64,000 nucleotides of DNA from assembly GCA_021413775.1 (NCBI GenBank), contig JAIOPS010000021.1, positions 5,014 through 69,013 of the forward strand. The letters run 5' to 3'. Shown in pieces: positions 1-50,659 of the stretch. The DNA comes from Candidatus Kaiserbacteria bacterium. GTDB taxonomy: Bacteria; Patescibacteriota; Minisyncoccia; Phycocordibacterales; UBA2100. The position numbers and the translations under genes are program-made. Below the pieces are notes generated by a model. It was not told where the DNA came from. It saw only the letters and a program-made list of their open reading frames with translations, and searched no databases. The first letter of the stretch is position 1, and every line of letters starts with the position of its first letter.

Positions 1-676
1 GGACGGCAACCGTATGGGCGTTGTAATTACCCGTCGCACCGCCCCACTTCACGAGCACAGAGCTGTTTTTCAGGGCATTCGCCTGCCTTTCCAAACGGTT
101 GACGAAGACTCTCATCTCCTTCCCGAACGTCGTCGGTGATGCGCTCTGCCCGTGAGTCCGTGCCAACATCGGTGTATCCGCGTAGCTTTTTGCCATACCG
201 GCAATTCCTCCGGCTACGCTTTGAAGAGCGGGCAAGACAGCTTCTTCAACCGCAGCCCGAAGCGAGAGCGCATGTGCGACACTGTTGATGTCTTCCGATG
301 TCAGCGCAAAGTGCACGGATTCTGAGACATCGGCAAGAGAAGTGCCGGCGAGTTGTTTCTTTATAAAATACTCGATTGCCTTCACGTCGTGGTTCGTCGC
401 GGGAATACCCTCGTACCCCTCACGCTCAATCAGCTTTATCGTTCGTGCGCTCTCGATGGTTATTTCAGGCAGCGTGCGCAGTACCGCTTTTTCCGCGCCA
501 GAAAGTTCGCGGACACCCGAGCCGTCCGCTTCCGAAAGTGCGATGAGGTATTCACACTCGGCGACGAAGCGCATTCTCATAAGACCGTATTCACTGAAGT
601 ACGCTCCCAGTTCTTTCGATGCGTCGCGGTAACGGCCGTCAACGGAGCTCACTGCGGTCAATGGTTCAAGAGGCAT
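1..676 (-). CDS. purB: adenylosuccinate lyase (N-terminal part; C-terminus lies beyond window start)
   Basis: Manual minus-strand translation from ATG at 676: MPLEPLTAVSSVDGRYRD...YFSEYGLMRMRFVAECEYL...TSEDINS...ARTHGQSASPTTFGKEM, near-colinear with E. coli PurB N-terminus (MELSSLTAVSPVDGRYGDK..SEYGLLKFRV) and the ARTHGQPA..PTT motif. Open to position 1. Start overlaps purC stop by 11 nt. Not in the ORF track because no in-window stop. Confidence 0.85.
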   Translation of the reverse strand, partial: MPLEPLTAVSSVDGRYRDASKELGAYFSEYGLMRMRFVAECEYLIALSEADGSGVRELSGAEKAVLRTLPEITIESARTIKLIEREGYEGIPATNHDVKAIEYFIKKQLAGTSLADVSESVHFALTSEDINSVAHALSLRAAVEEAVLPALQSVAGGIAGMAKSYADTPMLARTHGQSASPTTFGKEMRVFVNRLERQANALKNSSVLVKWGGATGNYNAHTVAV

Positions 677-1598
677 ACTGTTTCAAGTTCTTCTCTATGC
701 GCGGAATAATCGGCGTCTCTCCTTTTACAAAAGTCTCTCCCGTAATCTGTTCATACATCTGAATGTACCGCCGTGAAAGCTCATCCACAAGGTCCTGCGG
801 CGCGTCCGGAAGCGTCGCGTCTTTGTACGGGTCGCAGTTTTCCTTAAACCAGAGGCGGAGAAACTCTTTGTCGAAGTACTGCGGCTCCTCTCCTTTCGCA
901 AAACGCTCCTCGTACGAATCGAGTTGCCAGTAGCGCGATGAATCGGGAGTATGAATTTCATCTATGAGCGCGAGTTTCCCCGCGCTGTCGAGACCGAACT
1001 CGTACTTCGTATCCACAAGAATCAGGCCTCTCGATGCCGCGATTTCCTGGCCGCGGAGAAAGAGCGCCGTCGCGACTGCTTTCACGTCGGCAAAAAGTTC
1101 CGGCGTAACAAACCCTTCCGCTATCATCTCCTCAGAGCTCAAGGCTCTGTCATGTGTATCTTCTTTCGTGGTCGGGTCAAAAATCGGCTCGGGCAACTTC
1201 GAGTTTTTGCGCATACCATCGGGCAGGGTCAGACCGCCGAACGTTCTCTGACCGTTTGAGTACCGCGACCAAATAGACGTGTCGGTGACCCCGGTGAGAT
1301 AGCCCCGCATGACCGCCTCGATTGAAACCGTCCTGTATTTCCGGGCCACGGTAACATTCGGATCCGGCACGGCGACCACCTGGTTTTGAACGATGTCCTT
1401 GGTCTTTTCAAACCACCACGCACTTATCTGGTTGAGCACCTGCCCTTTCCACGGGATGTGCGCGATGATGCGGTCGAAGGAAGAATGCCGGTCCGTTGTA
1501 ACCAGCAGCAGGGTGTCGCCCAGGTCGTAAATATCACGCACCTTTCCCGTTTTTTTTGTACCAAGATTTTTAAAATCCGTTTCTTTCAAAATATCCAT
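666..1598 (-). CDS. purC: SAICAR synthetase (long, eukaryote-like form)
   Basis: ORF 666..1721; internal Met MDILKETDF... at 1598 avoids overlap with upstream purM. KVRDIYDLGD..LLLVTTDRHSSFDR..LILVDTKYEFGL motifs. pur operon context. Confidence 0.85.
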   Translation of the reverse strand: MDILKETDFKNLGTKKTGKVRDIYDLGDTLLLVTTDRHSSFDRIIAHIPWKGQVLNQISAWWFEKTKDIVQNQVVAVPDPNVTVARKYRTVSIEAVMRGYLTGVTDTSIWSRYSNGQRTFGGLTLPDGMRKNSKLPEPIFDPTTKEDTHDRALSSEEMIAEGFVTPELFADVKAVATALFLRGQEIAASRGLILVDTKYEFGLDSAGKLALIDEIHTPDSSRYWQLDSYEERFAKGEEPQYFDKEFLRLWFKENCDPYKDATLPDAPQDLVDELSRRYIQMYEQITGETFVKGETPIIPRIEKNLKQYAS

Positions 1599-1605
1599 AT
1601 ACGTT

Positions 1606-2724
1606 TCATTCTCCGGGAGGCGGGAGTGTAATGCTTTCGGGCTCGAAGACGACCTGTCGCTCGCCCTCTTCCACCTGCCCCACTTCAAGCAGGTCGTATC
1701 CCGCCGCACGGCCGAGCTCAAGAGTCTTGGTCACTTCGCTTCTCGGCAGAAATATATAGTATCCCACTCCCCAGTTGAACGTCTTCAGACAATCCTCGAG
1801 CGACACACCGATTGAGCGCATAAATTGCATAAGCGGAGGCACGTTCGTCCACGTGTGAATGCGGTATGTTGCGGGGCGATTATCGAATGCAATTTTCGAA
1901 ACACCGCTCCCGGTGCCGGGCAGAAGTGCATGAATGCCGACGCCGTTATCCAGCAGTGTCTCAACGAGATTCACGTAGGAGCGGGTCGGAATGAGCGTCT
2001 CTGCTCCGAGCGTAGTGCCACCCGGCAACTTCGTCATAAACTTTTCCGGCAACTCAAGCGCTTTCTTGATGACGAGTGAGATACCGTTGGCGTGTACGCC
2101 CGAGGACGCAACTCCGATAATGGCATCGCCGATTGCGAGATTCTTCCCGGTGATAAGACGTGATGTCGGTGCAATGATGGCCGTAACACAGCCGGACAGA
2201 GACGGCGCACTTTTGACCGGCGGCTCCGCTTTCACGAGATATTTCAATGCGGGTGATTCCCCCGCTGGTAGCGCCATGCCCGCCTCTTTGCAGACCTGCA
2301 GAAATCCGCGGGCGAGGTCCTCGGCTCGTTTCTCATCCGCAAACCACTCTGAATCCCCAGCTGCAACCTCGTCGGTATACACGACAGGCATCGCACCCTG
2401 CGCTATGACATCATTCACCGCCATGAGCGCGGCATCAATCGCGATTGCGTCGTAGTACGTCTTGCCCTCGCCCGAGAACTGGTACATCCATTCGGCTATC
2501 CAGTTCTTATTTCCGAGTCCCTCCTGCGTGTTGCACCACATATGCTTCTCGGTGCCGCGGTATTCGAAAACTCCGCCGTGTGCATGCAGAACATCGCTGT
2601 TGATGAACACGTCGCGTTTATTCGGGAACGTTATCGTCTGCCTTCCCGCCGCAATCATCGCGTGCTTGAAGGGTTCGATTTTCGTGTAATCTACTCCCGC
2701 TTGTGCGTACGCGCTTTTTTTCAT
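1606..2724 (-). CDS. purM: AIR synthetase-like (PurM family, archaeal/eukaryote-like sequence)
   Basis: 372 aa; N-terminal AGVDY motif; PurM-like N/C domain layout; sits between purE and purC in the operon. Confidence 0.7.
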
Positions 2725-3248
2725 ATGAGGTCGCTTTCCTCCAGATATTTTTTAAAGCCCTGCTCCTCCAATTTTTCCGCCTTCTTCAGTACCTCGTCGC
2801 GTATGGAATCTTTGTACGTACGGACTCTCTCCCCGACTGCGTCATCAAACGCGCCGATTATCTCCGCAGCAAGAATGCCGGCGTTCTTCGCACCATTGAT
2901 GGCCACCGTAGCCACAGGTACGCCCGGCGGCATCTGCACAATCGAGAGCAGTGAATCCATACCCTTGAGTGCTTTCGACTGAACAGGAACACCGATAACC
3001 GGGAGCGATGTCTGTGCGGCGACCATGCCGGGTAAATGCGCTGCGCCTCCTGCTCCCGCAATAATGACTTTGAGTCCTCGGCCGTGCGCCTCTTTTGCGT
3101 ACTCGACGAGCCTCTCGGGCGTGCGATGCGCGGAAACTATCGTCACTTCATTCGTGACACCGAGGTCATTCAGAATCGCCGCAGCATCCTGCATGACCGG
3201 CAAATCAGAATCCGAGCCCATGATGATACCTACGAGAGAAGTACTCAT
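2721..3248 (-). CDS. purE: N5-carboxyaminoimidazole ribonucleotide mutase
   Basis: 175 aa; [40 protein letters not shown] motifs typical of PurE. Confidence 0.9.
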
Positions 3249-3613
3249 ATAAAGTAACGCGTATCGTCATTCCTATCTATGAGGTCGTGTGCCTTTCTCA
3301 TTTCGTCGGGCGTGTAAATATATATAATTTCAAACTTGCCCGATGTTGTCCGATCGCTGTTGTGCACCACTTCAACCACATGTATCAGACCCCAATAAAT
3401 CCATTTTCCGTTCTTATTCTCGACCAGGAAATTCCGTACCGGCGGCGATTGGTAAACACGTATGTTCGGCTTGTTTGTAAACTCGAATACCCTTCCTGTA
3501 AAACTTTCTGCAGCATAGGGATTCAGGAGATGGCTCTCGATGTCCAACTCAGAAGGAAAACCCTGCTCTTTGGTTATTTGCAACGTATCGTTGATTTCTA
3601 TGAGACTTCCCAT
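3245..3613 (-). CDS. hypothetical protein (conspicuously lower-GC insert inside the pur operon)
   Basis: 122-aa ORF with 4-nt overlaps to purE and purK; AT-rich codon usage unlike its neighbours; no family recognised by eye. Confidence 0.4.
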
Positions 3614-3614
3614 A

Positions 3615-4715
3615 TCAGATAGTTATTATGTCTCTCGCTTTTAGAGCACTTCCTTTTGCCTGATCGAGCGTGTCGGCCACAGCTGTAATGTGCCCCATCT
3701 TTCGCTGTTTCCGAGTCTCCATCTTACCGTATATGTGAACTTTTACACCCGGTATTTTTTCCGCTTCCTCCACACCTTTCGGTTCGGCGGGTCCGTTACG
3801 TTCTCCGAGAATATTTATCATGACGGCGGCCGGCGCTGCCATCGCGGTATCGCCCAGAGGCATCCCTGTAATCGCACGGATATGCTGTTCAAATTGCGAT
3901 GTCACAGCCCCCTCAATCGTCCAATGGCCGGAATTGTGCACGCGCGGCGCAACCTCGTTGACTACGACCTCATCGCCCGACAAAAACATCTCTATCGCAA
4001 ATACCCCCGCTCCTTCAAATGAAGCGAGTACGGAGTGCGCCAGATGCTCGGCTTTATCCGCAATTTTTTTGTCGACTTGTGCGGGGGCGATGACGGTATC
4101 GCAGATATGGTCCTTGTGGATAGTCTCGACGACCGGATAGAGGCGAATTTCTCCCGAAGCCGTGCGTGCGGCAACGACTGCGAGCTCCTTATCGAATCTG
4201 ACGAAGCCCTCCGCATACGCCGGGACGTTTCCGATTTTTCCGAGTGCCTCCGCAAGAGCAGAAACGTCGGCAACCGTCGCATTGCCGCGACCGTCAAAAC
4301 CTCCCGAGCGAGCCTTGAGAACGTACGGGTATCCGAGGCTTTCCGCGTCCTGCGGTTCGCAAAACGGTGCGACCGCAATACCGTGTTCTTTGAGAAATTC
4401 CTTCTGGCGCAACTTATCTTTGATGATTGCGAGCGTGCGGGGTGTCGGATGGACAGGAAAACCTTCCACCGCCAGCTGCTGGAGCGCCTCGGCATTCACC
4501 GATTCTATTTCGTAGGTCAACACATCGGATTTCCCGGCAAGCGCGCGTATCATCGTCGCGTCCTTGTAGTCTCCTTCTATCTGTTCGTCCGAAACCTGAC
4601 CTGCCGGCCCGCGCGATTCAGGGTCGAGGGTGACGACTCTCAGACCGAGGCGATGCGCAGCATCCGCAAGCATCCGTCCGAGTTGTCCGCCGCCGGCGAT
4701 GCCCACTGTTTTCAT
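3615..4715 (-). CDS. purK: N5-CAIR synthetase (ATP-grasp)
   Basis: 366 aa; MKTVGIAGGGQLGRM N-terminus; ATP-grasp core; adjacent to purE. Confidence 0.85.
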   Translation of the reverse strand: MKTVGIAGGGQLGRMLADAAHRLGLRVVTLDPESRGPAGQVSDEQIEGDYKDATMIRALAGKSDVLTYEIESVNAEALQQLAVEGFPVHPTPRTLAIIKDKLRQKEFLKEHGIAVAPFCEPQDAESLGYPYVLKARSGGFDGRGNATVADVSALAEALGKIGNVPAYAEGFVRFDKELAVVAARTASGEIRLYPVVETIHKDHICDTVIAPAQVDKKIADKAEHLAHSVLASFEGAGVFAIEMFLSGDEVVVNEVAPRVHNSGHWTIEGAVTSQFEQHIRAITGMPLGDTAMAAPAAVMINILGERNGPAEPKGVEEAEKIPGVKVHIYGKMETRKQRKMGHITAVADTLDQAKGSALKARDIITI

Positions 4716-5242
4716 AGACGCGAAAGTATAAAATCCGCCCTCTCCGGTACCGGGAGAACCGGCACGGAAATAATGTCGTAGCCGAGTTCTGTATAGGCTG
4801 TGCGAATCGCCTCATGTATCTCCCGTGCCTGTTCGGGTGTCTCTGTCCGTGCTTCGTCCGCCTGAAAGTCGACGAGGTCGAGCAAGAAGACCGCCCGGTA
4901 CTTCGACGCATTGAGCATCTCTGTAAAGGCTTGGCGGATGGGTTCGTTATTCAGACGGAAGTAGGCGACAGAGTCCGGCACGCCGCGGTCGAAGAAAAAT
5001 GTCTCTTCAGGCGGCACTGCGCGTTCCATATTGTATTTGCGCTCCGCTATCCGGAAGAGCCAATCGTCGGTCGCACGAATCTGTTCGATAGTGAGACCCA
5101 GGGCCAGCTCCTCCTCGAAAAAGAGCCTCGCGGCCTCCGGAAGAATATTGTGCCCTCGCTTCTCCAATTCGTTCACAAGCGTTGTTTTACCCGCGCACGG
5201 ACCGCCCGTGAGTACGTACCAGGGCGGAGTTATTGCGTTCAT
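4712..5242 (-). CDS. P-loop NTPase, AAA_28-like (NadR-C-terminal/nucleoside-kinase-like ATPase)
   Basis: 176 aa; Walker A GGPCAGKTT near N-terminus; Walker-B-like FLLDLVD; 4-nt overlaps with purK and purQ, so clearly part of the pur transcription unit. Confidence 0.6.
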   Translation of the reverse strand: MNAITPPWYVLTGGPCAGKTTLVNELEKRGHNILPEAARLFFEEELALGLTIEQIRATDDWLFRIAERKYNMERAVPPEETFFFDRGVPDSVAYFRLNNEPIRQAFTEMLNASKYRAVFLLDLVDFQADEARTETPEQAREIHEAIRTAYTELGYDIISVPVLPVPERADFILSRL

Positions 5243-6015
5243 GAGAAGTACTCTACCGCATTTTTAAACATCGTAAGACCGGGACCATCTTTCGGTACAT
5301 CGGCACCGTCGCGCACGTACTCCTCGCGCAAGTACGTCCAATGCGGAAGTTCAGTGAAGCGTACTGCGCGCTCGGGATGCGGCATGAGCCCCAGGCAACG
5401 GCCGCCGTATCCGGTGATGCCTGCGATGTTCTCCATCGAACCGTTCGGATTCGCCGGTTGATTAAAATACTTCGCCGTCTCCCCCTCCACGTACCTGAGC
5501 GCAACGCCGTTCTGTGCTTTCAGTTCTGTGAAAACCTTCTCCGGCGCATAGTATTTGCCCTCTCCGTGCGCAATCGGCACGGACATCTCTGTTATTCCGC
5601 GAAGCCACGGGCTGTCATTTTGCACCTCGACGTCAACCCAGCGGCAGGTGTACCGGGCGTTGTCGTTGGCGATGAGCGCACCGGGCAAAATACCTGCGCT
5701 CGTGATGATTTGAAATCCGTTGCATACGCCGAGCATCAGCGTATCGCGGGAGAGGAACTTTTCGAGATGTTCTCCGAGATGCTGTGTGACGCGGTTGCCG
5801 TACGCTTTACCTGAGCCGGTGTCATCACCGTATGAAAATCCCCCCGGAAAAACAACGATGTGCGCCTGCGTCAGTATTTTCGGTCGCGCAATAACATCAT
5901 TGATGTGCACGACATCAGCGGTGCCTCCCGCTTTTTCAAATGCCGACTTTGTTTCGTCTTCCGTATTGAGTCCGTATCCGGAGAATATGAGTGCGTGCGG
6001 TTTCATACTTGCCAA
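5239..6015 (-). CDS. purQ: FGAM synthase, glutamine amidotransferase subunit
   Basis: 258 aa; GVCNGFQ catalytic Cys motif; ..MPHPER.. His/Glu motif; true start may be MKPH at 6006 to abut purL stop. Confidence 0.85.
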   Translation of the reverse strand: MASMKPHALIFSGYGLNTEDETKSAFEKAGGTADVVHINDVIARPKILTQAHIVVFPGGFSYGDDTGSGKAYGNRVTQHLGEHLEKFLSRDTLMLGVCNGFQIITSAGILPGALIANDNARYTCRWVDVEVQNDSPWLRGITEMSVPIAHGEGKYYAPEKVFTELKAQNGVALRYVEGETAKYFNQPANPNGSMENIAGITGYGGRCLGLMPHPERAVRFTELPHWTYLREEYVRDGADVPKDGPGLTMFKNAVEYFS

Positions 6016-8948
6016 TTCTTAAATGTTGAACGATGGCTCTCCGTAAGCCGCGCGACCGGCTCGTCTATGCGCTCTCCGGGTACATCCACGCGCAGAGTCC
6101 CCGTGTCCGTAACGTCGCCGATGCAGGTAAAGGAAAGTCCCTTGAACAATCGCTCGAACTTCTGCTCTTCGCCGGGGCGCACCGTGGCAAGCACTCGCCC
6201 CTGGCTTTCGGAAAAAAGAATGCTGTCGGCGGACTTTGCCTTGCCCGGAATCTTGCGGAGGTTCACGCGTGCGCCAAGCTGTCCGCCGATGGCGGACTTG
6301 GCGAGCGCTGCGGCCACGCCTCCTCGTCCCACCGGTGTTACGGAAGCAGGGTGCCCTGCCCGTATCGCGCGCGCGAGTGCCGTGTAGAGTCGTGCATTCT
6401 TTTTCGCGTGGACCTGCGGCACTGCACGACCGACGCCGGAGAGCAGCGAGAAGTATTCCGAGGCACCGAGCTCGTCGTCGGTGTCCCCCAGAAGGTAGAT
6501 GCGGTCACCCGGCATTTTAAAATCAACGGTCTGCGCGACCGAAGCATCATCCACGACTCCTATCGCGGAAATAAGCAACGTCGGCGGTGCCGCGATGTGA
6601 ATCGCCTCTCCTTTCGCGGTGTAGCCGCGGAAGTCGTTGAACATACTGTCTTTACCGGATATGTACGGCGTCCCGTATGCGACAGCCGTATCGTAGACGG
6701 CTTCAGCGGCTCTTTTCAATTCATACAATCGCTCCGGGGTGTTGGAGCTCGACCAGCAGAAGTTGTCGAGAATCGCCAGATACTCGAGCGAGGCTCCCGC
6801 GCACACCGCATTACGGACGGCGGTATCGATAGAGCACGCCGCCATGGCATACGTATCAACATCCGAGTACCAGGGCGCGAACCCGTGCGAGAGCACGACG
6901 CCTTTCTGCGAGCCGTGCACCGGCTGTATCACGCCCGCATCGACTCCCACGCGGCCCCGTCCCTGAAGCGGCTTTGTTACGGATGAACCCTGCACTTCGT
7001 GGTCGTACTGGGAGGAGATGAACGAGGTGGAGGCGATGTTCGGGCGCGCCAGGAGCTCATGAAGTACAGCACCGAGAGGTTTCGAGCGCGATGCTTTCGT
7101 GGGCTCCGTGTGACTTCTGACGGGCTTTCTGCTCTTCTGCACGCCGACAGGACGGCCGTCATGCAGGAAGTCCATATCGATATCCATTATTTTCCTGCCC
7201 TTGTATCTCACGACGCAGCGGTCGGAATCGGTGAACGTACCGATGACAGTCGCCTCGACATCGTGCCGGTCGAATATCTTTTTCAAGGTTTTCCAATTCT
7301 TTTTCGGAACCGCGAGCGTCATGCGCTCCTGCGATTCGGAAATCCAAATCTGCCACGGCGAAAGCCCGGGATATTTCAAGGGAACCTTCTCGATATCCAC
7401 AATGCAGCCGCCGCACTCCTTTGCCATTTCCGCTACCGAGCATGAGATACCGCCTGCGCCATTGTCGGTGATGCTCGAGTACAGGCCGGAATCCCGGGCT
7501 TCACGAACGATTGCATCCGACATCTTCTTTTGCGTAATGGGGTCTCCGATTTGCACGGCAGTCGCGGGAGAACCCGAGGAAAGCGACTCCGACGAGAACG
7601 TTGCACCGTGGATACCGTCGAGCCCGACCCGGCCTCCTGCCATAACCACATAGTCCCCCGCCTGTGCTTTTTTTGTGTAAAGTTTTCTGCCTTTGAGCGC
7701 ACGCGGAATGAGTCCGACCGTACCCGCGAAGACGAGCGGCTTGCCGCGGTAGCGCGAATCCACTGCAACGAAGCCGAGCGGCGTCGGAATACCGCTCTGA
7801 TTGCCGCCGTGATTGATACCCTTTACGACTCCCTCAAGAATGCGACGGGACGGCAGGAGCGGTTGCTGCTTTTGTTTATCACGATAGAGCTTCGTGGTGT
7901 CCACCGGATCCGCGACACAGAATCCGTACACGTTTGCAATCGGCTTTGCGCCCATTCCGAATCCGAGACAGTCGCGGTTCACGCCGACAATCCCGGTAAT
8001 TGCGCCTCCGAACGGGTCGAGCGCCGACGGAGAATTGTGTGTCTCCACCTTGTGCGTCACGAGGTACTGCTCATCGAACGCGATGCCGCCGGAATTGTCT
8101 TTGAAAACGGAGACACAGAAGTCCTTCTTTCCCTTTTGCTTGCGGATCTTTTCGGTAGCTCCTTTTATGTATTTGCGGTAAATGCCCTCACGCACCTCGT
8201 CGAGCGGGTCGGCAAAAATCGTATGCTTGCAGTGTTCGGACCACGTCTGGGCGAGAGATTCAATTTCGATGTCACGCGGATTTCTCCCCAACCCGCGGAA
8301 GTATTTCTGGATAACTTTCATGGATTCCAGCGAGAGTGCGAGCGGACCACGACGCGTCCCGTCTTTGTCCGCGATGCCGGACTTCCCGATAGCCGTCAAA
8401 GCCTCATCCGAAATGTCGAGGTTTACTTCGTCGGCCCGCTGCTCCTCGTGGAGTCGTACTTTCGGCACGGTGACGGGGATTCCTGTGCGCGCCGGAACCA
8501 CCGTCGCTCGCTCTATGAGCGGATTAAACAACTCCTGTGACATCGCCTCCGCCTCCTTCTGCGAAAGCGCGCCGCTGAAAAAAAGTACGAGCGAGCTGTA
8601 TACCGCCTCACCCTCCTTGAACACATAGCCCGTCGCATCTTCTATGGTTTCTTGCGCAGTCCGTCCTACGTTGTCGGTCACTCCGGGAAGAAATCCGATT
8701 TCAACAGTAAAGGCGGCGCCCGGTGGCACCGGTATTGTGCCGAGAGCGTACGCTTCAGTCGTCGGATTCGTGAAATGCTTTGCGGCTGTTTTCAAATTCG
8801 CCGCGCTGAGTTTTGCGTCCACGGTATACGCGGCGGCGATATGAACGCCGGTGAGTTTCGTTTTCGGGAAGAGGCCCGTGAGTGTCCGGAGAAAGCCTTT
8901 CGCGCGCGCGTCATCGACGGTTGAGAAGACGGTTATGCGCTCTGCCAT
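6003..8948 (-). CDS. purL: FGAM synthase large subunit with N-terminal PurS-like extension (purS-purL fusion)
   Basis: 981 aa, intermediate between small PurL (~740) and large PurL (~1300). N-terminal ~190 aa resembles PurS module(s). Body carries PurL AIRS-like repeats (SPSALDPFGGA, DNGAGG). Confidence 0.9.
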   Translation of the reverse strand: MAERITVFSTVDDARAKGFLRTLTGLFPKTKLTGVHIAAAYTVDAKLSAANLKTAAKHFTNPTTEAYALGTIPVPPGAAFTVEIGFLPGVTDNVGRTAQETIEDATGYVFKEGEAVYSSLVLFFSGALSQKEAEAMSQELFNPLIERATVVPARTGIPVTVPKVRLHEEQRADEVNLDISDEALTAIGKSGIADKDGTRRGPLALSLESMKVIQKYFRGLGRNPRDIEIESLAQTWSEHCKHTIFADPLDEVREGIYRKYIKGATEKIRKQKGKKDFCVSVFKDNSGGIAFDEQYLVTHKVETHNSPSALDPFGGAITGIVGVNRDCLGFGMGAKPIANVYGFCVADPVDTTKLYRDKQKQQPLLPSRRILEGVVKGINHGGNQSGIPTPLGFVAVDSRYRGKPLVFAGTVGLIPRALKGRKLYTKKAQAGDYVVMAGGRVGLDGIHGATFSSESLSSGSPATAVQIGDPITQKKMSDAIVREARDSGLYSSITDNGAGGISCSVAEMAKECGGCIVDIEKVPLKYPGLSPWQIWISESQERMTLAVPKKNWKTLKKIFDRHDVEATVIGTFTDSDRCVVRYKGRKIMDIDMDFLHDGRPVGVQKSRKPVRSHTEPTKASRSKPLGAVLHELLARPNIASTSFISSQYDHEVQGSSVTKPLQGRGRVGVDAGVIQPVHGSQKGVVLSHGFAPWYSDVDTYAMAACSIDTAVRNAVCAGASLEYLAILDNFCWSSSNTPERLYELKRAAEAVYDTAVAYGTPYISGKDSMFNDFRGYTAKGEAIHIAAPPTLLISAIGVVDDASVAQTVDFKMPGDRIYLLGDTDDELGASEYFSLLSGVGRAVPQVHAKKNARLYTALARAIRAGHPASVTPVGRGGVAAALAKSAIGGQLGARVNLRKIPGKAKSADSILFSESQGRVLATVRPGEEQKFERLFKGLSFTCIGDVTDTGTLRVDVPGERIDEPVARLTESHRSTFKNWQV

Positions 8949-9001: not shown

Positions 9002-10003
9002 ATGAAGAAAAAGGAGGGTTTGATACTCGGAGCATTACTTACGAAGCTCGCGCCCCGTCTCAAGGCAAAAGTACTCGTCGAGCCCGAATGGGGCGTCGTC
9101 GGGCAAATCACCTATGCGAACGGGAAGCGAAGGTATTTCCGATACAACACACTCGACCTCAATCCGGTCGGCGCGAGCGATGTCGCGAAGGATAAAGACT
9201 ACGCAGCATTTTTTATGCGGAAGCTCGGATACCCGGTCATCGAGGGGAAGACATTCTTTTCGCGGGAGTGGGCGAAAACAATCGGCTCGAAGCGGACCAT
9301 CGATGCGGGATTCGCGTACGCACAGACACTGGGATTCCCTGTTATCGTAAAACCCAACAGTGGAAGTCAGGGCACGGGAGTCGCGCTCGTGCACACAAAA
9401 AAAGACTTTTACTCCGCAGTGCGCAGAATACTCAGGAACGATAAGGTGGTGTTGGTTCAAAGACGCGTGGCCGGAAAAGACTACCGCATCGTTGTCCTCG
9501 ATGAGAAAGTAATCTCCGCATATGAGCGCACCCCACTTCAGATAACCGGCGACGGGCGTGCAACCATCTCGCAACTGCTCAGGAAAAAAGCCCGGGAATT
9601 CATCGCCGCAAGCCGCGACACGCAGCTTAAGCCGGATGATTCCCGCATCGCGGCCAAATTGAAGCGTCAAAAGCTGACCATGAAATCCGTTCCCGCAAAG
9701 GGCGAGAGCATCTACTTGCTCGATAATGCAAATCTTTCCACCGGCGGTGACTCACTCGATGTCACGGATAGTGTGCACCCCGGTTTCAAAAAACTCGCCG
9801 TTGCCCTTACGAAGGACATGGGACTGCGTCTGTGCGGCGTGGACATCATGACCGAGGGTGACATCACAAAGCCTCCCGTCAAGTGGCATATTCTGGAAAT
9901 TAACGCCGCTCCCGGCCTCGACCACTACGCACGGAGCGGCAAAGCGCAGGAGAAAATCGTCGAAGACCTGTACCTCAAAGTCCTCACGAGCCTCTCACGC
10001 TAG
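9002..10003 (+). CDS. ATP-grasp ligase, cyanophycin-synthetase-N-terminal/RimK-like
   Basis: ORF 8882..10003; start moved to MKKKEG at 9002. VIVKPNSGSQGTGVALV, ITGDGRATISQLL and WHILEINAAPGL motifs typical of ATP-grasp peptide ligases. Divergent from the purL operon start. Confidence 0.65.
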   Translation: MKKKEGLILGALLTKLAPRLKAKVLVEPEWGVVGQITYANGKRRYFRYNTLDLNPVGASDVAKDKDYAAFFMRKLGYPVIEGKTFFSREWAKTIGSKRTIDAGFAYAQTLGFPVIVKPNSGSQGTGVALVHTKKDFYSAVRRILRNDKVVLVQRRVAGKDYRIVVLDEKVISAYERTPLQITGDGRATISQLLRKKAREFIAASRDTQLKPDDSRIAAKLKRQKLTMKSVPAKGESIYLLDNANLSTGGDSLDVTDSVHPGFKKLAVALTKDMGLRLCGVDIMTEGDITKPPVKWHILEINAAPGLDHYARSGKAQEKIVEDLYLKVLTSLSR

Positions 10004-10500
10004 CGTTCCAGGTCAATCCAATGATACGTGATGCCGTTCCAATCGCGCTGCTCGTCGGCGAGTACCCTCGTGAATTCAGTTTCGTATGCGGGAAAGTATG
10101 TGTCCCCCTCCGCCGTCGCATCAATACGCGTGAGACACAGGCGCGTAGTATACGGAAGCGCCGCTTCATAAATCTGCGCTCCGCCGCCGATTGATATCCA
10201 TTCAGAATCAATGACCTTTGCTTTCTCCAGGGCCTCTTCGACGGAAGCCGCCGTGATGACACCGTCGTACGACCACGAAGTATCACGCGTGACGACAATG
10301 TTCGTCCTTCCGGGGAGCGGCTTCCCCAGGTAGCCGACAATGGATTCGAATGTTTTCCTGCCGAGGATAATGGGGTGTCCGGCGGTTACATCCCGGAAAC
10401 GCTTAAGGTCATCAGGAATATGCCACAGAAGCTTGTTCTCCTTACCGAGAACTCTATCTCTGCCGATTGCGGCTATGGCTGCGACGACGGGAGAACTCAT
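10000..10500 (-). CDS. folA: dihydrofolate reductase
   Basis: ORF 10000..10758; start at internal Met (MSSPVVAAIAAIGRDRVLGKENKLLWHIPDDLKRF...) at 10500. Classic DHFR N-terminal motif and ~167 aa size. Confidence 0.8.
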   Translation of the reverse strand: MSSPVVAAIAAIGRDRVLGKENKLLWHIPDDLKRFRDVTAGHPIILGRKTFESIVGYLGKPLPGRTNIVVTRDTSWSYDGVITAASVEEALEKAKVIDSEWISIGGGAQIYEAALPYTTRLCLTRIDATAEGDTYFPAYETEFTRVLADEQRDWNGITYHWIDLER

Positions 10501-10578: not shown

Positions 10579-11253
10579 ATGCAGAATTACGAAGTCGAAA
10601 TAAAAGCGCTCCTGGGCACACCTGAAAAGGCCGATGCCATCAGGAGTGCGCTTAAGAAAATCGACCCGTCCTGCGAAATACTGTCGCGCAACAAACAACT
10701 CAACCATTACTTCACCGGCGGTTCGCTTGAGAACCTCGTAGAAGTCGTACGTACGCACCTCACGCCGGAGGCCGCGTCGCGGCTCGACTCGATGGCTGCA
10801 AACGCGAAAGAGTATTCCGTGCGCACACGCGACAAAGACGGACAGGTGCTCCTCGTCGTCAAAGTTTCCGTGGGTTCTGACACAAGCTCAAACGGTGTCG
10901 CGCGTATGGAGTTCGAAGAATGGGTCCAGCTCACGCTTGAGGAGCTGGATGCTCTCGTACTGACTGCGGGATTTACGTATCAGGCGAAATGGTCCCGGGA
11001 GAGAGAAGAGTACGTGTGCAACGGCACAAACATTACGCTCGACAAAAACGCCGGATACGGCTGGCTGGCGGAATTTGAACGCGTTGTCGACGATGAAAGC
11101 AAGGTCGCGGGCGCACGGGCGGATATCGAATCGCTGATGCAGACGGTCGGCGCGAAGGAGCTGCCGCAGGACAGGCTTGAGCGCATGTTCACCTTCTACA
11201 ACGCCCACTGGCCCGAGTACTATGGGACCGAAAAAATATTCATAGTAGAATGA
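10579..11253 (+). CDS. CYTH-domain protein (triphosphate tunnel metalloenzyme; CyaB/ThTPase-like)
   Basis: 224 aa beginning MQNYEVEIKAL (EXEXK-like signature of CYTH). Ends 6 nt before dcd start. Confidence 0.5.
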   Translation: MQNYEVEIKALLGTPEKADAIRSALKKIDPSCEILSRNKQLNHYFTGGSLENLVEVVRTHLTPEAASRLDSMAANAKEYSVRTRDKDGQVLLVVKVSVGSDTSSNGVARMEFEEWVQLTLEELDALVLTAGFTYQAKWSREREEYVCNGTNITLDKNAGYGWLAEFERVVDDESKVAGARADIESLMQTVGAKELPQDRLERMFTFYNAHWPEYYGTEKIFIVE

Positions 11254-11259
11254 CCCTCT

Positions 11260-11829
11260 ATGTTTTTATCCGACATCGACATTAAGAAAGCGGTTGAAGA
11301 GGGCCATATCGTGCTCGAGCCTTTCGACGAGACCCGGCTCCAGCCCGTTTCGTACGACATCCTTCTCGGAAATAAATTTATCGAGAATGACGCGAGCGCG
11401 ACACACTTCGTGGATCCGTCGCGAAAAATCTTCGCAAAAACGCACGAGACCGTCGTCAAAGACGGCGAAGAGTTCGTCCTCCACCCCGGAGTTTCTGTCC
11501 TCGGCCTCTCCAAGGAGTTTTTCGGTTCGGACCACTACCTCATACAGGTCGGCGGCAAGTCCTCCCTCGCGCGCTGCGGACTCATGATTCACAACACGGC
11601 GGGCATCATCAATCCGGGACATTTCCTGCATATCACTTTTGAAATAACGAATCAGAACAACATCCCGATAATTCTCCGTCCGGGCATGGAAATCGCACAG
11701 ATAACGTTCTCGATGATATCGAGCCCCCCGAAACAGAACTACAAGAAAACCGGGCGCTTTGCGAAGGACAACTGGAAACACTTCGTGAGTGCGAAAGCAA
11801 AAAAAGCCAAGAAGCCCGCTAAGAAATAA
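11260..11829 (+). CDS. dcd: dCTP deaminase
   Basis: 189 aa; SYDILLG, GxxSSLARxG and dUTPase-like fold motifs; immediately followed by thyA. Confidence 0.85.
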   Translation: MFLSDIDIKKAVEEGHIVLEPFDETRLQPVSYDILLGNKFIENDASATHFVDPSRKIFAKTHETVVKDGEEFVLHPGVSVLGLSKEFFGSDHYLIQVGGKSSLARCGLMIHNTAGIINPGHFLHITFEITNQNNIPIILRPGMEIAQITFSMISSPPKQNYKKTGRFAKDNWKHFVSAKAKKAKKPAKK

Positions 11830-11833
11830 ACGT

Positions 11834-12796
11834 ATGAATTCCCGTCACCCCGAAATGCAGTACATGGACCTGATGCGGGAAACGCTCGCGGGCGAAGAGC
11901 AGGTGGATAAGGGTACGGGAGTGAAAACGTACAGCGTATTCGGGCGACAGATCCGCTTCGACCTGTCGCAGGGCTTGCCGGTTCTCACCACAAAAAAAGT
12001 GTACTGGAACGGAGTCCTGCACGAGCTGTACTGGTTCCTCTCCGGTCAGTCGAACATCAAATACCTCGTCGACCACAATGTGCACATTTGGGACGACTAC
12101 CCGTATAAGATTTACAGCGAAAAGGCGGAGAAAGAGAAATGGCCGCCGATGACGAAAGATGAGTTCATCGGAAAGATTAAAGACGACGACGCATTCGCCG
12201 CAGCTCACGGTGAACTCCCTCACATCTACGGAGAGTCGTGGCGACGCTGGCCCGCCGAAGACGGCCGGACCGTGGACCAGCTCGGCTGGGCGATTGAAGA
12301 ACTCCGGAAAGACCCCGATGCGCATAACACGCTCGTGTCATCCTGGAATCCGCCATACCTCTATTCAATGGCAAAAAAGGGACAGGGTGCGCGCTTCCCC
12401 ATCTGCCACAATATGTACCAAATAAATATCAAGCACGGCAAAGTGTGTTTGCAGCTCTACCAGCGCTCAGCGGATGTCTTTCTCGGGGTTCCCTTCAATA
12501 TCGCGAGCTACGCGCTTCTCACCGCAATTATTGCGAAAATTCTCGGGCGCGAGCCGGGCGAGTTCATCCATACATTCGGCGACCTGCACATCTACGAGAA
12601 CCACCGTGCGCAGGCCGAAGAGCAGCTCGCCCGCGAACCGCTTCCGTTCCCCACCGTTTCGTTCAACCGCGATTTTGACTCACTCGACTCGTTCAAACCC
12701 GAATACGTCGAACTGAACGGATACACGGCCCATCCTCCCATCAAAGCGGAGCTCACCGTCGCCGGGGGCTACAACAAAGACTTACACGGCGTATGA
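11834..12796 (+). CDS. thyA: thymidylate synthase (ThyA, with insertion)
   Basis: ORF 11789..12796; start at ATG 11834 just after dcd stop. Motifs RFPICHNMYQ, QLYQRSADVFLGVPFNIASYALLT. Confidence 0.9.
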   Translation: MNSRHPEMQYMDLMRETLAGEEQVDKGTGVKTYSVFGRQIRFDLSQGLPVLTTKKVYWNGVLHELYWFLSGQSNIKYLVDHNVHIWDDYPYKIYSEKAEKEKWPPMTKDEFIGKIKDDDAFAAAHGELPHIYGESWRRWPAEDGRTVDQLGWAIEELRKDPDAHNTLVSSWNPPYLYSMAKKGQGARFPICHNMYQINIKHGKVCLQLYQRSADVFLGVPFNIASYALLTAIIAKILGREPGEFIHTFGDLHIYENHRAQAEEQLAREPLPFPTVSFNRDFDSLDSFKPEYVELNGYTAHPPIKAELTVAGGYNKDLHGV

Positions 12797-12838: not shown

Positions 12839-14107
12839 ATGGAACTCTACCCTCACATAAAGAAGCAGGACAAGAAAGTGTACGACGCGATACAGGGCGA
12901 GGAAAAGCGCCAGGCGGAGGGACTTGAACTCATACCCTCTGAAAACTACGTCTCGCGTGCGGTCCGTGAGGCAAACGCCTCCTCGCTCACAAACAAGTAC
13001 TCCGAAGGATACCCAGGCAAGCGTTATTACGGCGGGCAGGAATATACGGACGAAGTGGAGGTGTTCGCCATCGAGCGCGCGAAAAAGCTTTTCGGTGCGA
13101 AGTACGCCAACGTCCAACCGCACGCAGGCGCCCCCGCGAATGTCGGCATGTACTTCGCGCTGCTCGAGCCGGGAGACACCGTTCTGGGCATGGACCTCTC
13201 GCACGGCGGTCACCTCACCCATGGACACCCCGTGACCTACCTCACAAAAATCTTCAATTTCGTCCGCTATAAGATGAAGAATATTGAAACCGGCGAAATT
13301 GATTACGACGAGATGCTGAAAGTCGCGAAGAAATCAAAGCCGAAAATCGTCCTCGCCGGCTACTCTGCGTATCCCCGTGAACTCGACTATGCGAAGTTCG
13401 TTTCGATTGCCCGGGAAGTCGGCGCGTACGCCGTAATGGACATCGCGCACATCGCAGGTCTCATCGCCGGCAAAGCGGTGAAGAATCCGTTCGATTACGG
13501 CTTCGACATCATGACGACAACGACCCACAAAACTCTCCGCGGACCTCGCGGCGGCATGATACTCACGCGCGAAGACGCCGATTTCGCGAAGAAAATAGAC
13601 AAATCAATCTTCCCCGGTCTTCAGGGAGGACCCTTGATGCACAACATCGCCGCAAAGGCAGTATGTTTCGGCGAAGCGTTGAATCCGAAGTTCCGTACCT
13701 ACGCGAAACAGATTCTCAAAAATGCCAAGGCCATGGAGAAGGTCTTCAAGGCCGCCGATATCCGCATGATTACGGGCGGCACATCGAACCATCTCATTCT
13801 TGCGGATGTGTACGGCTCACTCGGTATCTCCGGCAAAGAAGCCGAGACCCTGCTCGACGAGGTCGGAATAACGCTCAATAAGAATTCCATCGCCGACGAT
13901 GTGCGCGGACCGATGGACCCGTCGGGCATCCGTTTCGGCACGCCCGCCATCACGACACGCGGCTTCAAAGAAAAGGAGTCGGTCCGCGTCGCAGAACTCA
14001 TGATTGAGACACTCAAGAACAAAAGTGATAAGAAGAAGCACCGGGCGGCGCGTGAAGAAATCCGTAAGATGTGCAAGAAGTTCCCGATTCCTGAATCGTT
14101 CGTCTAG
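12839..14107 (+). CDS. glyA: serine hydroxymethyltransferase
   Basis: 422 aa; ELIPSENY, GYPGKRYYGG, TTTTHKTLRGPRGG (PLP lysine) motifs. Confidence 0.95.
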   Translation: MELYPHIKKQDKKVYDAIQGEEKRQAEGLELIPSENYVSRAVREANASSLTNKYSEGYPGKRYYGGQEYTDEVEVFAIERAKKLFGAKYANVQPHAGAPANVGMYFALLEPGDTVLGMDLSHGGHLTHGHPVTYLTKIFNFVRYKMKNIETGEIDYDEMLKVAKKSKPKIVLAGYSAYPRELDYAKFVSIAREVGAYAVMDIAHIAGLIAGKAVKNPFDYGFDIMTTTTHKTLRGPRGGMILTREDADFAKKIDKSIFPGLQGGPLMHNIAAKAVCFGEALNPKFRTYAKQILKNAKAMEKVFKAADIRMITGGTSNHLILADVYGSLGISGKEAETLLDEVGITLNKNSIADDVRGPMDPSGIRFGTPAITTRGFKEKESVRVAELMIETLKNKSDKKKHRAAREEIRKMCKKFPIPESFV

Positions 14108-36187: not shown

Positions 36188-36260
36188 TGCCCAGAGTCAG
36201 ATTTGCACTGACGACCCTTCCCTCTTCAGGGGAATGCTCTACTAACTGAGCTATCTGGGC
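36188..36260 (-). tRNA. tRNA-Phe (anticodon GAA), atypical T-loop
   Basis: Reverse complement GCCCAGATAGCTCAGTTAGTAGAGCATTCCCCTGAAGAGGGAAGGGTCGTCAGTGCAAATCTGACTCTGGGCA folds as a cloverleaf (7-bp acceptor, 5-bp anticodon stem TTCCC/GGGAA, loop CTGAAGA). T-loop reads TGCAAAT (G at 55), which is unusual. No encoded CCA. Confidence 0.65.
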
Positions 36261-36904: not shown

Positions 36905-36976
36905 TGCCCCCGGCAGGAATCGAACCCACATCTCTCCCTTAGGACGGGATTGCTCTATCCATTGAGCTACGGGGGC
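36905..36976 (-). tRNA. tRNA-Arg (anticodon CCU)
   Basis: Reverse complement GCCCCCGTAGCTCAATGGATAGAGCAATCCCGTCCTAAGGGAGAGATGTGGGTTCGATTCCTGCCGGGGGCA. 7-bp acceptor, D-arm GCTC/GAGC, anticodon loop GTCCTAA (CCT), T-loop TTCGATT with a GU-containing T-stem. No encoded CCA. Confidence 0.7.
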
Positions 36977-40982: not shown

Positions 40983-41053
40983 TGCGGGATGCGGGAATCG
41001 AACCCGCGTCTAATGCTTGGGAAGCACTCGTTCTGCCACTGAACTAATCCCGC
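40983..41053 (-). tRNA. tRNA-Gly (anticodon CCC)
   Basis: Reverse complement GCGGGATTAGTTCAGTGGCAGAACGAGTGCTTCCCAAGCATTAGACGCGGGTTCGATTCCCGCATCCCGCA; canonical cloverleaf, anticodon loop TTCCCAA, T-loop TTCGATT. No encoded CCA. Confidence 0.85.
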
Positions 41054-46069: not shown

Positions 46070-46077
46070 TCACTGCA

Positions 46078-46428
46078 CTGCATCGATAAGCCGGGTTCTG
46101 TGCCGTCTCTGCCTTGCGACAGAGAGGTAGCAGCCATGTATCTGGGATGAACGTTGCCGTTCACCTCAAGCGACTCTTTCGTGAAGTCCAATTGGTTCTC
46201 CACGAACACGGTCTTGCACGCAAGTAGGATTTTTGCCGTTGCACCCTCTGTGTTTCCACAAAGGCTGATCCTTGCGGATCCCCTCGCCTCTCGGCTCGGG
46301 CGTCTCTGTTCGCATCCCTGGGATTACCCCGGCGGGCGTTACCCGCTACCCTGCTCCGTATATCTTGCGAAATACGGGCGTGTCCGGACTTTCCTCTGAT
46401 TCTTGCGAACCAGCGACTGCTTAATGCA
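46078..46428 (-). ncRNA. rnpB: RNase P RNA (bacterial type A), ~350 nt
   Basis: Minus strand contains the universally conserved P4 elements GAGGAAAGUCCGGAC (5' half) and ACAGAACCCGGCUUA (3' half). Between them, CAGGGUAGCGGGUAACGCCCGCCGGGG matches E. coli CAGGGUGCCAGGUAACGCCUGGGGGGG. No credible ORF spans the region. Ends are approximate. Confidence 0.8.
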
Positions 46429-46435
46429 GAGGCTC

Positions 46436-49652: not shown

Positions 49653-50183
49653 CTATAAGGCTACCTGGTCGCCGATGGAGACATTGTGAGCCTTTGCCCA
49701 GCCTGCAGGGAGCTCGAGCACGTATCGTGCCGCCAAATCCGGCATAAAGCTCGCCGGATATGACTCAGGTTTCGCATTTTGAGCCATATATACAACCTTT
49801 CCATCGGCCGTTATCCATAGAATGTCTATCGAAAAGAGCATGTCCTTCATCCAGAAGCTGAAAATACCGTCCGCCGGGAAGATGAAGAGCATGCCTTCGT
49901 TTTCCCCGAGCCCCGCCTGTCCGCTCAGGCCCTGTTCCCGCTTCGCGGGGGTGTCGGCAATCGCGACACGCACCGAAGTCCCCGCGATAGATATCGTTTT
50001 TGTCGGCGAGAGAGTTGATGAAACGACATTTCGCACATCCCGGTATAGAGAGGACGGCGTAACGGCATTCATCGCCGCCGCATAAATGCTGCCGCCGATG
50101 AGCGCGCACACTCCGGCAGCGCCGAGATAGATAAGAATTCTGCGTGTCTCGGAGTTTCTGAAGAGTGATTGAATCATAGTCAT
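49653..50183 (-). CDS. DUF192-domain secreted protein
   Basis: 176 aa; signal peptide; EQGLSG..GMLFIFP..FWMKDMLFSIDILWI..VLELPAGW matches the DUF192 pattern. Confidence 0.6.
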   Translation of the reverse strand: MTMIQSLFRNSETRRILIYLGAAGVCALIGGSIYAAAMNAVTPSSLYRDVRNVVSSTLSPTKTISIAGTSVRVAIADTPAKREQGLSGQAGLGENEGMLFIFPADGIFSFWMKDMLFSIDILWITADGKVVYMAQNAKPESYPASFMPDLAARYVLELPAGWAKAHNVSIGDQVAL

Positions 50184-50206: not shown

Positions 50207-50659
50207 TTAGAGAAGAAGAACGACTGACATGACTACCAGAGAAGCAAGCCAGTAACCGGCATTAATGCAGTAGAGCTTCAGGGGCTTGTGTTCCCAAAGA
50301 ACTGAACCGAGAAGAACCGGCGCGACGAACCCGAACCATAGAGCTGTCGCGAGTTCGAGAGACTCCCCCAGCGTAAGTATACCGAGCGCCGCGGTAATCA
50401 TATGGAGCACGTACGCGACAACGAGTGCAGCGGCGAATGCAGCAAGCGTAAAGAGCGGCATGTGCTTATTTCCGCGCTCCGCAATTTCAGGAGAGATGTT
50501 GGCAAGTCGCGTCCATGCCCGACCGAAGACTCTCGGGTGATACCAAAGGTAACCCACGATGACATGCGCAACGGCTGCAGCGACAACAGGGACGAATGGC
50601 ACGAACAAGGCGAACATATTCCGTGAAATTATATCACCAGCTACTTCCACAAATCCCAT
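50207..50659 (-). CDS. DUF1761-like integral membrane protein
   Basis: 150 aa, 4 TM; VGYLWYHPRVFGRAW motif reminiscent of DUF1761. Confidence 0.5.
   Translation of the reverse strand: MGFVEVAGDIISRNMFALFVPFVPVVAAAVAHVIVGYLWYHPRVFGRAWTRLANISPEIAERGNKHMPLFTLAAFAAALVVAYVLHMITAALGILTLGESLELATALWFGFVAPVLLGSVLWEHKPLKLYCINAGYWLASLVVMSVVLLL

Follow-up and report, generated by a model that had tools for sequence, protein, structure and literature searches.

The 64,000-nucleotide stretch analysed here (hereafter the window), from contig JAIOPS010000021.1 of a Candidatus Kaiserbacteria bacterium, encodes two ATP-grasp ligases, which we call P1 and P2 (Table 1). A previous sequence-only reading had described the two open reading frames (ORFs) and quoted their motifs; both ORFs were found intact and with those motifs. 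PurK was the only other ATP-grasp gene in the window, and hidden Markov models of the two families detected no third member of their clade there. P1 and many of its orthologues carry the NCBI name 'cyanophycin synthetase', while P2 is named 'hypothetical protein'. From sequence comparison and gene context we propose, with moderate confidence, that P1 is a stand-alone ATP-grasp amide ligase of folate (one-carbon cofactor) metabolism in Parcubacteria, probably one that attaches an amino acid to the glutamate tail of folate.

The P1 start codon is the ATG at 9002, as in about 120 orthologues (333–340 amino acids (aa), beginning MKxKxExL); an alternative, longer start at GTG 8882 would run into purL. 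The P1 family, which consists of Parcubacteria proteins of 333–340 aa, is large and widespread. P1 was matched by more than 3,300 90%-identity clusters in a word-indexed search (E ≤ 1e-5) and by 441 50%-identity representatives at E ≤ 1e-30, and at least 548 loci were found in species-representative genomes. Orthologues were 59–79% identical to the window protein, and in a comparison with other proteins from the same loci, where the P1 orthologues were 59–71% identical, P1 is conserved about as well as PurL and slightly less well than GlyA. Being kept as well as PurL or serine hydroxymethyltransferase, in at least 548 species-level genomes that are tiny, P1 very likely has an important role. 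The family is strongly basic throughout (isoelectric point (pI) 9.6–10.35, net charge +14 to +32; P1 itself about 9.9), against a median pI of 6.2 for ORFs in the window. Such basicity is soft evidence, and would be in keeping with binding of a polyanion, for example a polyglutamylated folate. The curated family libraries contained no model for the P1 family, and in the literature we found no description of it or of any folate-linked ATP-grasp enzyme in candidate phyla radiation (CPR) bacteria.

P1 and P2 gave weak Pfam matches to RimK, Dala_Dala_lig_C and CPSase_L_D2, and both have the fold, phosphate-binding Lys, Mg2+ ligands and acyl-phosphate Arg of the ATP-grasp superfamily. The best NCBIfam match of P1 was the G-domain segment of cyanophycin synthetase, CphA (TIGR02068, 175.9 bits; NF010623, 183.2 bits), followed by the ATP-grasp module of GshF (152.6 bits) and N-acetylglutaminylglutamine (NAGGN) synthetase (114.9 bits). 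Its top PDB sequence match was GshF (3ln7, E = 8e-31, residues 105–307). The AlphaFold2 (AF2) model of P1 (predicted local distance difference test score (pLDDT) 77.7) shares core, lid and omega modules with the CphA G domain, and Foldseek matched it to the CphA1/CphA2 G domain at E = 1e-24 and about 27% identity. When sequence and predicted fold were searched against structures, CphA1, CphA2 and GshF came first for both P1 and P2 (E 1e-24 to 1e-18), with RimK, LysX and Ddl behind by about ten orders of magnitude.

To place the active site, HMMER alignment columns were counted, anchored on identical motifs, and residue roles were taken from TeCphA1 (PMC9427784). The ATP phosphate-binding K261 corresponds to K117 in P1 and K191 in P2, R309, which stabilises the acyl-phosphate, to R162 and R237, and the Mg2+ ligands D431/E450 to D281/E299 with N301 in P1 and D353/E372 with N374 in P2. 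The oxyanion residue G456 is G305 in P1 and Y378 in P2 (Y or F across the P2 family). R323, which binds the Asp side-chain carboxylate, is kept as R176 in P1 and lost in P2 (A251). The large-loop residues N394/S396 are N244/S246 in P1, where the loop ANLSTGG is identical, and G316/L318 in P2, where the nucleophile loop is altered to TGRLFGG. The P-loop residue H267 is Q123 in P1 and R197 in P2. In TeCphA1, Arg458 grips the aspartate that is being added by its alpha-carboxylate and is essential for activity (PMC9427784); in both families an invariant Asp takes its place (D307 in P1, D380 in P2). All mapped P1 positions were invariant in 29 orthologues, among them K117, R162, D281, E299, N301, G305, Asp307 and the whole ANLSTGG loop; K191, R237, D353, E372 and N374 were invariant in P2. 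Judged by these residues, P1 and P2 look like competent ligases, and neither is predicted to bind its nucleophile in the CphA manner, P2 having diverged further.

The database name would make P1 a cyanophycin synthetase or the maker of a cyanophycin-like polymer, and CphA was indeed its best NCBIfam and structural PDB match, but this reading is effectively refuted. CphA1 combines N, G and MurE-like M domains in about 870 aa. The matches of P1 (333 aa) and P2 (402 aa) are confined to the G domain, at TIGR02068 positions about 207–469 of 862 (from about 162 at the widest), and the 176–183 bits reached by P1 compare with curated cut-offs of 850 bits (TIGR02068) and 877 bits (NF010623). No Mur_ligase Pfam domain was present in P1 or P2. 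P1 has neither the N domain nor the MurE-like M domain, and therefore no arginine-adding site. The Arg458-to-Asp307 change argues the same way, as does that of His267 to Gln123. No Mur-ligase partner other than FolC recurred near P1 loci, and no cyanophycinase did. The label would thus wrongly imply synthesis of a nitrogen-storage polymer in Parcubacteria.

Orthology of P1 to RimK, GshB, Ddl, LysX, MptN and NAGGN synthetase was also rejected, all scores lying far under the cut-offs. P1 and P2 scored 56.7 and 23.6 bits for RimK (TIGR00768, cut-off 143.4), 48 and 20.7 for MptN (350), 45.9 and 22.2 for LysX (275.6), 152.6 and 112.2 for GshF (NF002688, 425), and 114.9 and 116.9, over the ATP-grasp part only, for NAGGN synthetase (TIGR03103, 569). 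For D-alanine–D-alanine ligase (TIGR01205, 245.65) P1 reached 42 bits; a cell-wall context is absent in most of its loci, and distinct Ddl-like genes are present in related genomes. Neither protein has a GshA domain, and no GshA was found among the recurrent neighbours of P1. The statement of the sequence-only reading that neither has a Mur-ligase domain holds (Pfam, NCBIfam): both are stand-alone ATP-grasp ligases of the CphA-G/GshF type, and no orthology to a characterised enzyme was found in Pfam, NCBIfam or PDB searches.

The same reading had treated P1 and P2 as paralogues in a compact region. Their homology is beyond chance (BLASTP, 27% identity over 210 aa, E = 3e-14; profile–profile comparison, 25% identity over 255 columns, E = 1.2e-21), but it is distant: each is closer to CphA and GshF than to the other, so that they are two separate families and not recent paralogues. 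The genes lie 40.6 kb apart. No locus besides the window held both, and their neighbourhoods were disjoint. Thus, P1 and P2 do not form one system.

P1 had been thought to have no partners or adjacent biosynthetic genes. In the window, however, folA converges on it, the two stop codons overlapping by 4 nt, and thyA and glyA lie within 3 kb. The same arrangement (P1>/DHFR<; DHFR, dihydrofolate reductase) recurs in loci L011, L035, L070 and L080. On the other side purL is divergent from P1 across a 53-bp spacer, and it was found at -1 and divergent in all 16 related loci.

Table 1. Positions of the features discussed, on the window except where a locus is prefixed.
Feature	Position	Strand	Assignment and basis
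P1	9002..10003	+	333-aa stand-alone ATP-grasp carboxylate-amine ligase, CphA-G/GshF clade
P2	50641..51849	-	402-aa ATP-grasp ligase, CphA-G/GshF clade, family separate from P1
folA	10000..10500	-	Dihydrofolate reductase, 166 aa; Pfam DHFR_1, E 3.8e-46
purL	6003..8948	-	FGAM synthase, 981 aa; Pfam AIRS, AIRS_C, FGAR-AT linker
purQ	5239..6015	-	FGAM synthase glutaminase subunit; Pfam GATase_5, E 4.9e-70
AAA_28-type small ATPase	4712-5242	-	176 aa
Protein without family	3245-3613	-	122 aa
PurM-like protein	1606-2724	-	372 aa; AIRS/AIRS_C
CYTH-domain protein	10579..11253	+	Pfam CYTH, E 1.4e-08; recurrent in Kaiserbacteria block
dcd	11260..11829	+	dCTP deaminase; Pfam DCD, E 1.7e-33
thyA	11789..12796	+	Folate-dependent thymidylate synthase; Pfam Thymidylat_synt, E 1.1e-88; exact start codon uncertain
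glyA	12839..14107	+	Serine hydroxymethyltransferase; Pfam SHMT, E 3.3e-150
DUF1761 membrane protein	50207..50659	-	Pfam DUF1761, E 1.1e-30
DUF192 protein	49653..50183	-	Downstream of DUF1761 gene; Pfam DUF192, E 1.7e-31
RNase P RNA	46071-46432	-	Bacterial class A, 122 bits
tRNA gene	36188-36260	-	
tRNA gene	36905-36976	-	
tRNA gene	40983-41053	-	
tRNA gene	54459-54543	-	
Multi-transmembrane protein	L034:6426-7205		About 240 aa; no Pfam match
Multi-transmembrane protein	L047:11116-11874		About 240 aa; no Pfam match
Multi-transmembrane protein	L052:9061-9759		About 240 aa; no Pfam match
Multi-transmembrane protein	L075:11213-11941		About 240 aa; no Pfam match
P1 homologue in synthetase array	L167:6001-7008		39-41% identity to P1
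P1 homologue in synthetase array	L168:4363-5358		39-41% identity to P1

We retrieved 80 orthologous P1 loci, called their ORFs, clustered the proteins and named recurrent neighbours by Pfam and NCBIfam; counts were made over 77 loci. The folate genes counted were those for the FolC2-type CofE-like ligase, FolC, a DHFR or RibD_C reductase, 5-formyl-tetrahydrofolate cyclo-ligase (MTHFS), FolD, GlyA and ThyA. At least one was next to P1 in 41/77 loci, at most two genes away in 50/77 and within six genes in 56/77. When the CofE-like gene was not counted, DHFR, RibD_C, MTHFS, FolD or FolC still lay within two genes of P1 in 39/77. As a matched control we took 78 P2-centred loci from genomes of the same kind, and folate genes were found in 0/78, anywhere in the locus (Fisher P ~1e-24, not corrected for phylogeny and overstating the significance because the loci are related). 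Thus, P1 is linked to folate genes, and P2 is not folate-linked.

The commonest partner within six genes was the CofE-like ligase (29 loci; Pfam F420_ligase, E = 5e-47), whose best model was TIGR04132, 'putative folate metabolism gamma-glutamate ligase' (187–235 bits), and which fell under the F420 CofE cut-off. DHFR (Pfam DHFR_1) was present in 18 loci and MTHFS (5-FTHF_cyc-lig) in 15, in 12 of which it was the next gene on the same strand. ThyA and GlyA, from the same protein clusters as the window proteins, were present in 10 and 7 loci, a RibD_C/DHFR-like reductase (RibD_C) in nine, FolD (THF_DHG_CYH) in seven, and FolC, above the TIGR01499 cut-off, in five.

The P1 and folate genes were combined in at least 10 distinct arrangements. 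These included P1>MTHFS> (some with a 4-nt overlap), FolD>P1>, MTHFS>CofE>P1>, CofE>P1>, P1>CofE>RibD_C>, P1>membrane protein>RibD_C>CofE>, RibD_C<FolC<P1>, DHFR>P1> and PurL<P1>DHFR<. There were 21 cases in which P1 and a folate gene were co-directional with a gap of at most 100 bp, some overlapping by 4 nt. The reductase beside P1 was either FolA or RibD_C, and the glutamate ligase either FolC or the CofE-like enzyme; this non-orthologous displacement of partners points to a functional link and not to inherited gene order. We find the variety of arrangements more persuasive than the locus counts. A similar exchange is known in Chlamydia, where a CofE homologue replaces FolC and clusters with 5-formyl-tetrahydrofolate cyclo-ligase (PMC1971073).

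Two further features of these loci were observed. On one Patescibacteria contig (JBBUFS010000001.1) two separate pairs of P1 and a convergent CofE-like gene lie about 27 kb apart (L027, L049), so this two-gene module is duplicated there. In four operon-like loci a multi-transmembrane protein of about 240 aa, with no Pfam match even at E ≤ 1, is encoded between P1 and the RibD_C and CofE-like genes, and is a candidate folate or vitamin transporter.

Deeper homologues were mixed. In two, P0283 and P0256, at 40% and 45% identity, MTHFS is still the adjacent gene. Others, at 34–41% with a single one at 50%, are found instead beside aminoacyl-tRNA synthetase or sugar-metabolism genes, or as tandem ATP-grasp pairs, so the folate link holds for the P1 orthologue family and not for the whole clade. 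Two of these relatives, at 39–41% identity to P1, sit in tight, partly overlapping aminoacyl-tRNA synthetase arrays (class I synthetase > P1-like > TatD; SerRS > P1-like < ArgRS; Table 1). Among the 150 best 50%-identity cluster representatives the only fusions were tandem double or triple ATP-grasp proteins and one with acylphosphatase (P0326, P0366, P0372 and P0383, about 650 aa; P0330 and P0364, about 1470–1490 aa; P0365), and their N-terminal halves were not P2-like. Other relatives form adjacent unfused pairs (L164, L165), one of them beside a Peptidase_S51 gene (cyanophycinase/dipeptidase E family) and an FGase-type hydrolase gene. This pattern suggests systems of stepwise small-peptide synthesis outside the CPR.

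These relatives bear on the possibility that P1 makes a free dipeptide or small peptide, as an L-amino-acid ligase or a glutathione-synthetase-like or NAGGN-like enzyme, with its folate neighbourhood a by-product of a conserved nucleotide/one-carbon super-cluster. The GshF module and NAGGN synthetase were its next best NCBIfam matches, and the tandem pairs and fusions, with the one pair by hydrolase genes, point to small-peptide metabolism. However, P1 has no GshA or GNAT partner and scores far under the respective cut-offs, and its folate association outlasts many rearrangements and the non-orthologous replacement of partners, while being missing from the control loci. We regard a free-peptide product as unlikely.

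The divergent purL, in the window and in 16 loci, raises a different possibility, that P1 is an ATP-grasp enzyme of nucleotide biosynthesis, such as one standing in for PurD or PurT. Next to P1 (window 1-8948; also L011, L013 and L060), the purine cluster comprises purB, purC, purM, purE, (purK), purQ and purL; purF, purD, purN/T and purH were not found within about 10 kb of it, so the clustered pathway is partial. Yet purine genes lay within six genes of P1 in only 18/77 loci; these all share one lineage-type arrangement, and their purine genes are without exception on the other strand. In most P1 loci folate genes occur without any purine gene. P1 also showed no specific similarity to PurD, PurT or PurK (best PurK-type Pfam match, 17 bits). 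A purine role is accordingly very improbable.

The purine operon of the window has features of its own. Its PurM-like protein shares only about 28% identity with the PurM proteins of related Kaiserbacteria-type loci, in contrast to the neighbouring PurE, PurQ and PurL (62–71%); it is an AIR synthetase that has either diverged or been replaced. Between purK/purE and purQ the operon also encodes a small AAA_28-type ATPase and a 122-aa protein without a family.

The proposed folate role of P1 draws on the chemistry of its clade. The characterised members phosphorylate the alpha-carboxylate of an N-acylated amino acid and then add an amino acid to it, the substrates being gamma-Glu-Cys (GshF), the cyanophycin C-terminus (CphA) and N-acetyl-Gln (NAGGN synthetase). 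Since folate is pteroyl-glutamate, itself an N-acyl-glutamate, this chemistry and the gene neighbourhood together lead us to infer that P1 extends the glutamate tail of salvaged folate by a residue. By analogy with the clade, ATP and Mg2+ would be held between lid and core by K117, D281, E299 and N301. The terminal alpha-carboxylate of an N-acylated amino acid would become an acyl-phosphate stabilised by R162, and the amine of a second substrate, placed by the ANLSTGG loop (N244, S246), would attack it, forming an amide bond and releasing phosphate. The likeliest carboxylate substrate would be the glutamate, or gamma-glutamyl tail, of a salvaged folate, to which P1 would add a capping residue, working beside FolC or the FolC2-type gamma-glutamate ligase, the reductase and MTHFS. 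With an invariant Asp307 at the clamp position of CphA, the nucleophile may be cationic or have no carboxylate. In that case the folate used by many Parcubacteria would be capped and chemically distinct, which we consider possible but doubtful.

Several observations weigh against a folate-tail ligase. The P1 loci share ancestry, so their counts are not independent events. The window has no FolC, CofE-like, MTHFS or FolD gene, only folA, thyA and glyA being near P1, and three homologues at 39–50% identity (P0245, P0276, P0296) have no folate neighbour, two of them lying among aminoacyl-tRNA synthetase genes. No tetrahydrofolate or ZTP riboswitch was found ahead of P1 in the window or in nine other loci with long leaders, and a fusion of P1 with a folate enzyme was absent from the 150 best representatives. 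CofF and MptN, the known ATP-grasp ligases of cofactor tails, are RimK-type, a family for which P1 is well under the cut-off. Gene neighbourhood alone cannot name a substrate. Alpha-linked additions to folate were reportedly described in 1986, but we know of no gene responsible for them, and so of none to compare with P1.

The same neighbourhood would also fit a folate ligase with another reaction. P1 could perform a dihydrofolate-synthase-type step, joining glutamate to pteroate or dihydropteroate and splitting the FolC activities with the CofE-like enzyme, or it could be an ATP-grasp formate–tetrahydrofolate ligase feeding FolD, ThyA and the purine genes. The retained R176 and N244, whose CphA1 counterparts bind the aspartate side-chain carboxylate, could hold a glutamate side chain; P1 borders the purine cluster in 16 loci, and formate-using ATP-grasp enzymes exist (PurT, PurP). 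On the other hand, folP, folK and folB were not among the recurrent neighbours of P1, and with no gene of the pterin/para-aminobenzoate branch recurring there a dihydrofolate-synthase step would have no substrate supply. Moreover, the CofE homologue of Chlamydia sufficed on its own to complement an E. coli folC mutant (PMC1971073). For the formate option, 10-formyl-tetrahydrofolate is already supplied by FolD and GlyA, and all characterised members of the clade activate the alpha-carboxylate of a peptide or N-acyl-amino acid, not formate or an aromatic acid. Either reaction thus seems improbable compared with the addition of a residue to the folate tail.

Finally, the sequence-only reading had suggested non-ribosomal ligation of amino acids by P1 and P2, with a polymer, cell-wall precursor or protein as the acceptor. 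Protein tailing by ATP-grasp enzymes is known from RimK, LysX and ArgX, but no small acidic carrier protein recurred near P1, and peptidoglycan-related genes were within six genes of P1 in only 2/76 loci. For P2 the corresponding figure was 27/78, in three lineage-specific blocks, which gives the cell-wall part of the idea some support for P2 and none for P1. As an account of both proteins it is quite unlikely.

The P2 family (about 400–420 aa, 825 clusters) matches the P1 family in fold and not in context. P2 aligned over its full length with orthologues of 391–444 aa. Its N-terminus has an invariant C16-x2-C19-G-N-x-P-x2-H26 motif followed by two long predicted helices, which CphA and GshF do not have; this region may bind a metal as a knuckle or mediate interactions. 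Its best NCBIfam matches were again to the cyanophycin synthetase G domain (TIGR02068, 156.6 bits; NF010623, 152.5 bits), and its AF2 model (pLDDT 87.6) superposed on the CphA1 G domain with a root-mean-square deviation of 3.5–3.7 A over about 332 columns (Foldseek). In the window the first 19 nt of the DUF1761 gene are shared with the 3' end of P2, which makes co-transcription probable; DUF1761 was at +1 on the same strand in seven P2 loci and DUF192 at +2 in six.

P2 neighbourhoods were lineage-specific. In the Kaiserbacteria, including the window, the order is P2 > DUF1761 > DUF192 and then a class II ribonucleotide reductase. In a second block a TIGR00725-like protein precedes P2, with L20, IF3 and two Peptidase_M15-like genes downstream; in a third, S1 > P2 < glucosaminidase-like protein, MurC, PgeF, MurD and MurE are nearby; in a fourth, UvrC > P2 > Ddl-like protein, the Ddl-like gene is directly downstream on the same strand in six loci. 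Overall, MurC, MurD, MurE or PgeF occurred in 10 P2 loci, a glucosaminidase-like gene in 12 and a Peptidase_M15-like gene in nine, the last two assignments being weak and under the Pfam cut-offs. These associations suggest a cell-wall peptide role for P2, as a lead only: the blocks reflect lineage-specific synteny, and the window neighbours are DUF1761, DUF192 and the ribonucleotide reductase.

Elsewhere the window contains an RNase P RNA and four tRNA genes (Table 1), and several mechanically called ORFs in these stretches are therefore spurious.

The chemistry and fold of P1 are ordinary; what would be new is its likely pathway, the correction of a widespread misannotation and a possible modified folate. 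If the folate assignment is right, one of the best-studied vitamin pathways would gain a further step or folate derivative, and metabolic reconstructions of CPR bacteria and of their vitamin dependence on hosts would improve. In bacteria, a capped folate would correspond to sarcinapterin and alpha-capped F420, and P1 would be a possible lead to the never-identified type of enzyme behind alpha-linked residues in bacterial folylpolyglutamates.

Among known systems, the CphA1/CphA2 G domain is the best match to P1, the ATP, Mg2+, acyl-phosphate and oxyanion residues and the ANLSTGG loop being common to both. They differ in the missing N and Mur-ligase M domains, in the two substitutions at the nucleophile site and P-loop, and in context, which is nitrogen storage for CphA and folate genes for P1; P2 differs from CphA further, in the lost R323 equivalent and its TGRLFGG loop. 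The GshF (GshAB) module, which joins an amino acid to a gamma-glutamyl dipeptide at its alpha-carboxylate, is the closest chemical analogue of a reaction on pteroyl-glutamate or a gamma-glutamyl tail, although P1 is neither fused to nor encoded near a glutamate–cysteine ligase.

FolC and FolC2 (CofE-type) share the P1 neighbourhood and presumably its pathway, and form ATP- or GTP-dependent amide bonds on the folate glutamate tail, but their folds (Mur-ligase and CofE) are unrelated to that of P1. As P1 co-occurs with one or the other, it would provide an additional activity and not a replacement. Our working analogy is with CofF, MptN and MyfB, which, as glutamate ligases of the ATP-grasp superfamily, lengthen or cap the tail of F420, tetrahydromethanopterin and methylofuran, respectively; ATP-grasp tailoring of cofactor tails is documented for MptN (methanopterin), CofF (F420) and MyfA/MyfB (methylofuran) (PMC8141765). 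The shared theme is an acidic cofactor tail with a CofE-family gamma-glutamyl ligase as partner. In P1 the cofactor would be folate and the hosts are CPR bacteria. CofF, MptN and MyfB are of the RimK family and P1, under the RimK-family and MptN cut-offs, is not, so a shared role would have arisen by convergence within the superfamily; P1 may act like these enzymes without belonging to their family.

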